This document shows positions 56,511 to 61,677 of a DNA stretch of 64,000 nt, piece after piece (position 1 is the stretch's first letter; the number at the start of each line of letters is the position of its first letter). Source of the DNA: Escherichia coli (GTDB taxonomy: Bacteria > Pseudomonadota > Gammaproteobacteria > Enterobacterales > Enterobacteriaceae); the NCBI RefSeq assembly GCF_003018255.1, contig NZ_CP027440.1. One strand, 5' to 3'. The translations under genes and the position numbers were made by a program. The notes below the pieces were generated by a model. It did no database searches and had not been told where the DNA came from. It saw only the letters and a program-made list of their open reading frames with translations.

Positions 56511-56629
56511 GCTTTTCCAGTTTCGGATAAGGCAAAAATCAATCTGGTGATAGTGTAGCGGCGCAACTTGCCCCGCACCAAATAAAAAAAGCCGGTACTG
56601 ACTGCGTACCGGCTGCGAATGGATGTTAA

Positions 56630-57952
56630 TTAATCAAACCGTAGCTGCGGCACAATCTCTTTGGCCTGCGCCAGGAATTCGCGACGATCGGAGCCGGTCA
56701 GCCCTTCGGTACGCGGCAGTTTTGCCGTCAGCGGGTTTACGGCCTGCTGGTTTATCCATACTTCATAGTGCAGATGCGGCCCGGTTGAACGTCCGGTATT
56801 ACCGGAAAGCGCGATACGGTCGCCACGTTTCACCTTCTGTCCCGGTTTCACCAGGATCTTGCGCAAGTGCATATAACGCGTGGTGTAGCTGCGACCATGA
56901 CGAATAGCCACATAATAACCTGCTGCGCCACTGCGTTTGGCAACCACCACTTCACCGTCACCCACTGAAAGCACTGGCGTACCTTGTGGCATGGCAAAAT
57001 CAACACCTCTGTGTGGCGCAACGCGACCGGTCACCGGATTAGTACGACGCGGGTTAAAGTTAGATGAGATACGGAACTGTTTCGCCGTCGGGAATCGCAA
57101 GAATCCTTTCGCCAGACCAGTACCGTTACGATCGTAGAATTTGCCATCTTCAGCGCGGATTGCGTAATAATCTTTACCTTCTGAACGCAAACGTACGCCC
57201 AGCAGCTGGCTTTGCTCACGTTTACCATCAAGCATTTCTCGTGACATTAACACCGCAAATTCATCGCCTTTTTTCAGTTTGCGGAAATCCATTTGCCACT
57301 GCATGGCTTTAATCACTGCGCTCACTTCGGCGCTGGTTAAACCGGCGTTTCTGGCGCTGGCAACAAAGCTTCCCCCGACGGTACCTTTCAGCAGATTGTT
57401 GACCCACTCTCCTTGCTGCATTTCGCTGGTCATTTTAAAACCGTTAGCGGCAGTACGGTCATAGGTTCGGGTTTCACGACGAGACACTTCCCAGGTGAGG
57501 CGCTGCAGTTCGCCGTCCGCGGTTAATGTCCAGGAGAGTTGTTGACCGATTTTCAGGTTACGCAATTCTTTGTCGGCAGCAGCCAGTTGGGTGATATCAC
57601 CCATATCAATACCATACTGATTGAGAATGCTGCTTAGCGTATCGCCAGTGGAAACAACATATTCATGCACGCCCGCTTCACCGGCGATTTTGTCATCCAG
57701 TTCATCCTGGGGAATGGCTTCATCTTCTTGTGCAGCTTGATCAATCGGCTCACTGGCTTCAGGTAAGAGCGAACGAATTTCGTTCTGTTCCAGCTCAATG
57801 GTTTTGACAATTGGCGTGGCATCGCGGTGATAAACATAGGGCCGCCAGACAGCGACGGCCAGAGTAAGAACGGTGAGCGACCCTAACATAACGCGGTGTG
57901 GTCGCGGTAAATTATTAAACGCCAGGGCGACAGAGCGGGCTATCTGTTGCAC
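56630..57952 (-). CDS. mepM: Murein DD-endopeptidase MepM (YebA), LysM plus M23 peptidase, 440 aa
   Basis: ORF 56630..57952 minus; M23 motifs HRGVDF and HLHYE. Confidence 0.94.
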
Positions 57953-57967
57953 GTAATCACTTCCTCA

Positions 57968-58900
57968 TTAATCTCCTTTCAGGCAGCTCGCATACTGGTT
58001 GGCTAATTGATTCAGGAATTCTGAATAGCTTGTTTTACCCAGTTTGATATTCGTCCCCAGGGGATCCAACGTTCCCATACGAACGGATGTCCCTCGTGCG
58101 ACGCTCTCAACGACCGCTGGCCTGAACTGTGGCTCAGCAAAAACGCAGGTTGCTTTTTGCTCAACCAACTGTGTTCTTATTTCATGTAAACGCTGCGCGC
58201 CAGGTTGAATCTCAGGGTTAACGGTAAAATGACCAAGCGGTGTCAGTCCGAACTGTTTTTCGAAGTAGCCGTAAGCATCGTGAAAAACGAAATAACCTTT
58301 CCCCTTGAGCGGCGCGAGCTCGTTACCAACCTGCGTTTCGGTTGAGGCTAATTGTGCCTCAAAATCCTTCAGGTTGGCGTCAAGTTTGGCTCGACTTTGC
58401 GGCATAAGTTCCACTAATTTTCCATGGATTGCAACCGCTGTAGCCCGCGCTATCTCTGGGGAAAGCCAAAGATGCATGTTGAAATCGCCGTGATGGTGAT
58501 CTTCGTCACTTTTTTCCGCGTGGTCGTGATCATCATCATCGTCGTGAATACTTTTCATCAGCAGCGGTTTCACATCTTCTAGCTGCGCAATCGTTACCTG
58601 TTTCGCTTCTGGTAATTTACTTACCGGTTTTTGCATGAACGCTTCCATCTCCGGGCCAACCCAAACGACTAAGTCCGCGTTCTGTAAGCGTTTTACATCC
58701 GATGGACGCAGTGAATAATCATGTTCTGAAGCGCCGTCAGGCAGTAAAACCTGCGTTTCTGTTACCCCATCAGCAATGGCAGAAGCGATGAACCCAACGG
58801 GTTTAAGCGAAGCGACAACGGCGGCATCTGCGGCCTGTGTTGCACCGCCCCAGAGAGCGGCGGATAATGCTGCGAAAAGAAGCGTTTTTTTATGTAACAT
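57968..58900 (-). CDS. znuA: Periplasmic zinc-binding protein ZnuA, 310 aa
   Basis: Internal ATG ([23 protein letters not shown]) of ORF 57968..59026; His/Asp-rich loop [21 protein letters not shown]. Confidence 0.94.
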
Positions 58901-58933
58901 AATGCGACCAATCATCGTAATGAATATGAGAAC

Positions 58934-58954
58934 TGTGATATTATAACATTTCAT
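58934..58954. promoter_or_regulatory. Zur box in divergent znuA / znuCB promoter region
   Basis: tgtgatattataacatttcat, a near-palindrome matching the Zur operator consensus as I recall it. Confidence 0.75.
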
Positions 58955-58978
58955 GACTACTGCAAGACTAAAATTAAC

Positions 58979-59734
58979 ATGACAAGTCTGGTTTCCCTGG
59001 AAAATGTCTCGGTTTCTTTTGGCCAACGCCGCGTCCTCTCTGATGTGTCGCTGGAACTTAAACCTGGAAAAATTTTGACTTTACTTGGGCCAAACGGCGC
59101 AGGTAAGTCGACACTGGTACGGGTAGTGCTCGGGCTGGTAACACCCGATGAAGGGGTTATCAAGCGCAACGGAAAACTGCGCATCGGCTATGTACCGCAG
59201 AAGCTGTATCTCGACACCACGTTGCCACTGACCGTAAACCGTTTTTTACGCTTACGCCCTGGCACACATAAAGAAGATATTTTGCCTGCACTGAAACGTG
59301 TCCAGGCCGGGCATCTGATTAACGCACCGATGCAAAAGCTCTCGGGTGGCGAAACGCAGCGTGTACTGTTAGCGCGAGCATTGTTAAATCGACCGCAATT
59401 ATTAGTGCTGGATGAACCCACTCAGGGCGTGGATGTGAATGGTCAGGTGGCGTTATATGACCTTATTGACCAACTGCGTCACGAACTGGATTGTGGCGTT
59501 TTAATGGTATCTCACGATCTGCATCTGGTAATGGCAAAAACCGATGAAGTGCTTTGCCTGAATCACCACATTTGTTGTTCCGGTACACCGGAAGTTGTTT
59601 CCCTGCATCCGGAGTTTATTTCTATGTTTGGTCCTCGTGGTGCTGAACAACTGGGTATCTATCGCCATCATCATAATCATCGTCACGATTTACAGGGACG
59701 AATTGTTTTGCGTCGGGGAAATGATCGCTCATGA
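58979..59734 (+). CDS. znuC: Zinc ABC transporter ATPase ZnuC, 251 aa
   Basis: ORF 58979..59734; Walker [13 protein letters not shown] signature LSGGETQR; His-rich C-terminus. Confidence 0.95.
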
Positions 59735-60516
59735 TTGAATTATTATTTCCCGGTTGGTTAGCCGGGATCATGCTCGCCTGTGCCGCGGGTCCGCTGGGTT
59801 CGTTTGTGGTCTGGCGTCGTATGTCTTATTTCGGTGATACGCTGGCTCATGCCTCATTACTTGGCGTCGCGTTTGGTTTGTTGCTGGACGTGAATCCATT
59901 CTATGCGGTGATTGCAGTTACGCTGTTGTTGGCGGGCGGTCTGGTATGGCTGGAGAAGCGCCCACAGCTGGCGATCGACACATTATTAGGGATTATGGCG
60001 CACAGTGCCCTGTCGCTGGGCCTGGTGGTCGTTAGTCTGATGTCTAACATTCGTGTTGATTTGATGGCTTATCTGTTCGGTGATTTGCTGGCAGTGACGC
60101 CAGAAGATCTCATCTCTATTGCGATTGGCGTGGTCATCGTGTTGGCGATTCTGTTCTGGCAATGGCGCAATTTGCTGTCAATGACGATTAGCCCGGATCT
60201 GGCGTTTGTTGATGGTGTGAAATTACAGCGCGTGAAATTGTTGTTGATGCTGGTGACAGCATTGACAATTGGTGTAGCGATGAAATTTGTCGGCGCGTTG
60301 ATTATTACTTCGCTGCTGATTATTCCTGCAGCTACAGCGCGTCGCTTTGCCCGCACGCCGGAACAGATGGCCGGTGTCGCTGTTTTGGTGGGAATGGTGG
60401 CAGTAACTGGCGGTTTAACCTTTTCCGCATTTTACGATACGCCGGCGGGTCCGTCGGTAGTGCTATGTGCGGCACTGTTATTTATTATCAGTATGATGAA
60501 AAAGCAGGCCAGCTAA
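59731..60516 (+). CDS. znuB: Zinc ABC transporter permease ZnuB, 261 aa
   Basis: ORF 59731..60516; start overlaps znuC stop by 4 nt. Confidence 0.95.
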
Positions 60517-60534
60517 TCTGTCGCTGAACACATT

Positions 60535-61677
<1,143 letters not shown>

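Follow-up and report, generated by a model that had tools for sequence, protein, structure and literature searches.

The window analyzed here, a 64,000-nucleotide stretch of Escherichia coli DNA, contains the gene order lpxM-mepM-znuA-znuC-znuB-ruvB, which has a nucleotide identity of 97.7% to the same region of E. coli K-12 MG1655. The whole 4.2-kb stretch is present in 5425 of 5426 E. coli genomes, and the best match to it among complete E. coli genomes is 99.2%. The lpxM, mepM, and znuA genes are on the minus strand, and znuC and znuB are on the plus strand. The znuA gene (57968-58900, minus strand) encodes a periplasmic zinc-binding protein (Pfam ZnuA, E = 2e-65), as also annotated in RefSeq and in K-12. 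The znuC gene (58979-59734, plus strand) encodes an ATPase (Pfam ABC_tran, E = 2e-29), and znuB (59731-60516, plus strand), which overlaps znuC by 4 nt, encodes a permease (Pfam ABC-3, E = 7e-91). As was noted in the preliminary description of this DNA, the translation of znuA contains a His/Asp-rich loop (residues 119-137, 19 residues) and that of znuC has a His-rich C-terminus (HHHNHRH, residues 230-236). Together, the ZnuA-family protein with this loop, the ABC-type ATPase, and the permease of the ABC-3 family make up a ZnuABC zinc ABC importer.

The mepM gene (also called yebA; 56630-57952, minus strand) starts with GTG, and its open reading frame matches the K-12 annotation. It encodes a LysM/M23 murein DD-endopeptidase with the Pfam domains OapA_N (membrane anchor), LysM, Csd3_N2, and Peptidase_M23, and the zinc motifs HRGVD (HxxxD) and HLH (HxH, residues 393-395) are found in the translation. 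The MepM protein is identical (100%) to that of K-12, and ZnuA is 98.7% identical, with four amino-acid substitutions. The open reading frames, the Pfam results, and the K-12 annotation all agree with the gene calls and coordinates proposed earlier. Across 80 species, MepM (87-99% identity) is better conserved than ZnuA (77-99%), and mepM keeps GTG, a weak start codon, in 76 of 76 species. M23 enzymes need zinc, and hosts starve pathogens of zinc.

The mepM gene lies 15 nt from znuA on the same strand, as had been stated. The spacer (57953-57967, minus strand; TGAGGAAGTGATTAC) is identical to that of K-12 and includes the Shine-Dalgarno sequence GAGGAAG (57966-57960). A terminator scan of this gap gave no terminator-like site, and RNA folding at the znuA-mepM junction indicated an unstructured region (-3.4 kcal/mol, z +1.0); both bear out the earlier remark that no terminator is visible. 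A transcript 3' end between 57953 and 57967 had been named as evidence against co-transcription; according to Term-seq data for K-12 (Adams 2021), neither the gap nor the early part of mepM contains any such end. The arrangement is conserved: among 80 species loci, retrieved via MepM homologues at least 87% identical in a contig scan that covered Enterobacteriaceae, znuA was directly upstream of mepM on the same strand in all 80, with a gap of 15 nt in 74 and 12 nt in six (Kluyvera). The spacer sequence, including GAGGAAG, is nearly invariant in these loci, as is the GTG codon of mepM.

The spacer between znuA and znuC (58901-58978) is 78 bp long and contains a single Zur box (58930-58953), in agreement with the preliminary description, whose 21-mer was located at 58934-58954. 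Two frames can be applied to this operator. The 20-bp frame (58934-58953, the 21-mer minus its last base) fits the two-dimer pattern TGWNAYRWTATAWYRTNWCA, which is based on structure (Gilston 2014, PMC4219657), with no mismatch, and it was the sole match at up to one mismatch in the 64 kb, where 0.02 matches were expected. The 23-bp frame (58930-58952; GAACTGTGATATTATAACATTTC) differs at two positions from the classical consensus GAAATGTTATAWTATAACATTTC, the gamma-proteobacterial Zur consensus of 23 bp that is written GAAATGTTATA-N-TATAACATTTC; it was the sole match at up to three mismatches in the window, and none of 100 shuffles gave any. The box had been described as a near-perfect palindrome. 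It is a palindrome, but the adjective is slightly generous, since symmetry holds for 9 of the 11 arm pairs when the 23-bp frame is used and for 7 of 10 with the 20-bp frame; thus, it is a good pseudo-palindrome. A simple repeat search returned a 9-nt core only, and the imperfect arms surfaced through the motif searches.

The Zur core TGTGATATTATAACAT is essentially invariant (at least 95% conserved) among 76 Enterobacteriaceae species, in which the spacer length ranges from 76 to 79 bp. Two substitutions, at 58913 and 58933, distinguish the spacer from that of K-12, and the operator core is identical. Position 58933 (C in the present strain), the only difference within the Zur box, lies outside the 20-mer at a flank position of the 23-bp box that varies freely among species. 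Zur binding has been published for the K-12 operator with this identical core (Gilston 2014, PMC4219657). Zur control of the divergent znuA and znuC promoters is established in K-12, and it probably applies to the present strain as well, judging from the identity of the operator core. The Zur operator of K-12 znuA/znuCB was reportedly described by Patzer and Hantke in 2000, and the operator serves as a structural model system.

The start sites determined in K-12 were transferred to the window by a constant offset of 1883683. The znuA starts at 1942614 and 1942612 (Yan 2018, SMRT-Cappable-seq) correspond to 58931 and 58929, on the border of the Zur box, and the znuC start at 1942633 (Yan 2018) corresponds to 58950. 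For the znuA promoter (58929-58965, minus strand), we read from the sequence a -35 element TTGCAG (58965-58960) and a -10 element TAATAT (58943-58938) separated by a 16-nt spacer, and for the proximal znuC promoter (58936-58950, plus strand) an extended -10 element TG-n-TATTAT (58936-58944). Both -10 elements lie inside the Zur box. The pair represents the already known bidirectional promoters occluded by Zur. Further znuC starts have been mapped upstream of the Zur box on the plus strand, where they overlap the oppositely oriented znuA gene or lie at its beginning, in the regions 58692-58727 and 58874-58907. The start at 58727 (Kim 2012) fits a scanned promoter, TTTACA-16-AATAAT (58692-58719, plus strand), and those at 58874 and 58906/58907 come from Yan 2018 and Kim 2012. 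Transcripts from these upstream starts must cross the Zur-bound operator before reaching znuC. On the same strand, the K-12 Term-seq data (Adams 2021) include a 3' end at 59019, which follows a U-rich run and is 41 nt from the beginning of znuC.

Transcription from the znuA promoter into mepM has been observed directly in K-12. Yan 2018 defined operons comprising b1857 and b1856 that start at 1942612 and 1942614; that is, znuA-mepM transcripts from the Zur-controlled start, as the proposal of co-transcription had anticipated. The test suggested with that proposal, detection of a transcript spanning the junction, has thus in effect already been done by the published K-12 data. In M9, 41 reads of Yan 2018 start at 1942614, of which 16 end at 1941517, one ends within 50 bp downstream, and 10 pass through. 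Accordingly, 27 of the znuA-promoter reads extend to the internal 3' end and are informative; 16 of them stop there, 118 nt inside mepM, whereas the others continue for a median of 172 nt. Read-through from znuA into mepM is therefore the minority outcome in M9-grown K-12.

The K-12 3' end at 1941517 corresponds to position 57834. It falls in the U-rich tail of a terminator-like hairpin (57830-57860, minus strand), the one closest to the gap on this strand. This hairpin, formed by codons 31-41 of mepM, consists of a stem at 57860-57840 and the tail CUAUGUUUAU, with a folding energy of -13.1 kcal/mol. At 57839, the RNA has C in the present strain and U in K-12, so that the tail is one U poorer here. 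All eight stem pairs are possible in 28 of 76 species, and the synonymous entropy is normal (about 0.6); the idea of a conserved attenuator was rejected on these grounds. The hairpin is a weak, lineage-restricted stop that trims the read-through. Within znuA itself, the K-12 Term-seq data (Adams 2021) contain reproducible 3' ends at 58319 and 58312 (minus strand), about 580 nt from the start, which were scored as not Rho-dependent.

The mepM gene also has start sites of its own inside znuA, in the region 58343-58450 (minus strand). Yan 2018 reported mepM alone from 1942026 (58343) and mepM together with lpxM from 1942081 (58398), and Kim 2012 reported yebA starts at 1940050 (58343) and 1940085 (58378) in an older numbering that differs by +1976. 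The start at 58343 is thus common to two independent studies. The internal promoters fit the sigma-70 consensus poorly. An invariant motif, TTGCAA (58434-58429) followed after 17 nt by GAACTT, fits the start at 58398. The sequence GGAACTT (58412-58406), followed after 16 nt by CCAAA (58389-58385), matches a sigma-E-like pattern exactly, and the start at 58378 is 6 nt downstream. The first base of this -10 element is C instead of T, and the element is missing in several species, whereas nearly every species has retained the -35 element unchanged. From this match, the start at 58378 is probably sigma-E-dependent. Overproduction of sigma-E raised yebA-lpxM 1.9- and 1.4-fold, with the 1.9-fold value for yebA found in two array studies, and Kabir 2005 also reported yebA-lpxM; according to the table with these data, yebA is absent from the Rhodius 2006 promoter set. 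The gene is mildly raised under secretion stress.

These start sites bear on the caveat, attached to the original proposal, that a mepM-specific promoter might account for all expression. Such starts do exist inside znuA. They make the proposal incomplete, as does the stop of M9 reads inside mepM, but neither finding refutes it. Under many conditions, the internal promoters could supply most of the MepM. Therefore, Zur adds a zinc-responsive part on top of a Zur-independent basal expression of mepM.

The znuA coding sequence shows synonymous constraint at two places in a codon alignment of 76 species (gene mean 0.54; minimum of 2000 shuffles 0.214). In codons 151-178 (58450-58367), which include the upstream elements described above, the lowest 15-codon value is 0.195, which none of the 2000 shuffles reached. 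In codons 232-261 (58207-58118, minus strand), the minimum is 0.164, again below all 2000 shuffles, and this is the strongest synonymous constraint in znuA-mepM. A possible 16-bp imperfect hairpin (58167-58130) was predicted in the latter block by RNAalifold, with an MFE z of -0.72 and no compensatory change in the species alignment. An Rfam search of 58207-58118 gave no match, published start sites and 3' ends do not fall in it, and visual inspection of both strands for motifs of sigma-70, sigma-54, or sigma-E revealed none that was convincing. An overlapping frame was considered as the cause of the constraint and rejected: the alternative-frame open reading frame (58164-58012) runs well past the constrained stretch. 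The leader of the mepM-only transcripts is 390-450 nt long. One speculative explanation, which we regard as rather doubtful, is that the znuA coding sequence is a regulatory platform for mepM, composed of a composite promoter with a sigma-E-type element (58450-58367) and a cis-acting leader element with the possible hairpin (58207-58118). If so, mepM would integrate zinc (through Zur read-through, trimmed at 57834), envelope stress (through sigma-E), and leader-RNA control. The sigma-E-type internal promoter and the constrained block at 58207-58118 are modest leads.

A response of mepM to zinc has been described in several organisms. Murphy 2019 (PMC6381278) pointed out that E. coli mepM adjoins the Zur-controlled znu locus in a conserved arrangement, and raised the possibility of a Zur-independent promoter inside znuA. 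By the account in that paper, zinc starvation raises E. coli mepM in two array studies, one of them validated by qPCR; the primary reports are Sigdel 2006 and Hensley 2012, whose result is cited here by way of Murphy 2019. The same paper states that yebA of Yersinia pestis is up in a delta-zur strain. Kharadi 2020 (PMC7705223) showed by qRT-PCR that delta-zur derepresses znuA and eagA in Erwinia amylovora, and Maunders 2024 found that zinc limitation induces mepM in Klebsiella pneumoniae. In a 2026 preprint on genome-wide mutagenesis, salt-tolerance SNPs were found in both the Zur site and mepM. Together with the K-12 transcripts, the zinc and Zur responses in relatives support the original interpretation of zinc-dependent co-transcription of znuA and mepM. 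Regulation of mepM by zinc and Zur via znuA is already published (Murphy 2019, Kharadi 2020, Maunders 2024).

We consider it highly probable (about 0.85) that this is the E. coli locus for high-affinity zinc uptake, with Zur-blocked divergent promoters and partial read-through from znuA into mepM. When zinc is sufficient, two dimers of zinc-loaded Zur would occupy the single operator at 58930-58953. Since both -10 elements lie within this operator, the bound repressor would shut the znuA (58931/58929) and znuC (58950) promoters together. When zinc is scarce, Zur would leave, and polymerases that initiate at the znuA promoter would cross the terminator-free 15-nt spacer into mepM. Translation of mepM would then use the conserved ribosome-binding site and the GTG codon of the gene itself. 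As transcription from the znuA promoter crosses this gap, the zinc-dependent M23 endopeptidase MepM would be expected to rise along with the importer. The coupling would be partial, since some of the read-through would halt at the weak hairpin 118 nt into mepM, and a Zur-independent input would come from 58398, 58378, and 58343. Zur binding, the start sites, the znuA-mepM transcripts, and the zinc- or Zur-responsive mepM mRNA come from K-12 or from other species and close relatives; we infer their transfer to the present strain, the sigma-factor assignments, and a possible translational coupling. The link between zinc homeostasis and endopeptidase supply, proposed and supported in papers of 2019-2024, is biologically meaningful.

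Two other explanations should be weighed against read-through under Zur control, and each draws on the starts inside znuA. One is that mepM is in effect independent, being expressed from these starts, with read-through from the Zur-controlled promoter as negligible noise. The three internal starts lie within a deeply conserved block, Kim 2012 gives starts for yebA and none for znuA, and the stop at 118 nt into mepM in 16 of the 27 informative reads would suit such a view. However, the znuA-mepM operons are defined by full-length reads, and in four genera, expression of mepM or its orthologue increases when zinc is limiting or zur is deleted. Moreover, both motif searches of the 64-kb window found no Zur box belonging to mepM; because the gene has no such box in the window, its zinc response must come through znuA. 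Independence of mepM in this sense is thus quite unlikely. The other explanation accepts the zinc response and makes it indirect: starvation would cause envelope stress, which would act on the sigma-E-like promoter in znuA without Zur derepression and read-through. The 6-nt distance from the GGAACTT-N16-CCAAA sequence to the downstream start at 58378 (Kim 2012), the near-invariance of its -35 element, and the response of yebA to sigma-E overproduction (1.9-fold) and, mildly, to secretion stress are consistent with such a route. However, deletion of zur alone derepresses the Erwinia orthologue and raises Y. pestis yebA, and transcripts from the Zur-controlled start do reach mepM. The sigma-E effect is small, and several species lack the -10 element. 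An indirect response by this route therefore appears most improbable, and derepression by Zur with partial read-through is the preferred reading.

The locus can be compared with known systems. E. coli K-12 (b1855-b1859) has the same gene order, 78-bp divergent spacer, 15-nt gap, operator core, and MepM protein; the differences are the two spacer positions (58913, and 58933 in a flank of the 23-bp box that is not critical), the four ZnuA residues, and the hairpin tail at 57839. The znuA-eagA/znuCB region of Erwinia amylovora (PMC7705223) likewise has a 78-bp intergenic region with a Zur box and an M23 gene directly 3' of znuA, and both znuA and eagA are derepressed in delta-zur. However, EagA and MepM share about 70% identity, and an input from c-di-GMP has been described for Erwinia but not for E. 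coli. In Yersinia pestis, a different genus, yebA (YPO2062) adjoins znuA, has no Zur box of its own, and is up in delta-zur, and it is needed for full virulence. The shyB gene of Vibrio cholerae (PMC6381278) also encodes a LysM/M23 endopeptidase that is induced by zinc starvation via Zur. In contrast to mepM, which has no Zur box and relies on read-through, the single gene shyB carries a Zur box of its own and is located in a genomic island, unlinked to znuA.

Some features of the flanking regions were also recorded. The znuB-ruvB interval contains two REP-type repeats (60507-60566 and 60588-60664), with sub-threshold matches to Rfam naRNA4 (44.4 and 37.9 bits; gathering score 59.5). Downstream of mepM is a strong intrinsic terminator (56580-56614, minus strand), in which a 9-bp GC-rich stem is followed by U7 (-16.6 kcal/mol, z -5.8). 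Yan 2018 observed the transcript containing mepM and lpxM despite this strong terminator (56614-56590). SELEX peaks of the sigma-E and sigma-28 holoenzymes were placed inside yebA by Shimada 2017, at about 57055 if the older K-12 numbering applies. The lpxM gene has minus-strand starts of its own, one at 56545 just upstream (Yan 2018) and another at about 57154 inside mepM, with a 644-nt leader (Kim 2012).
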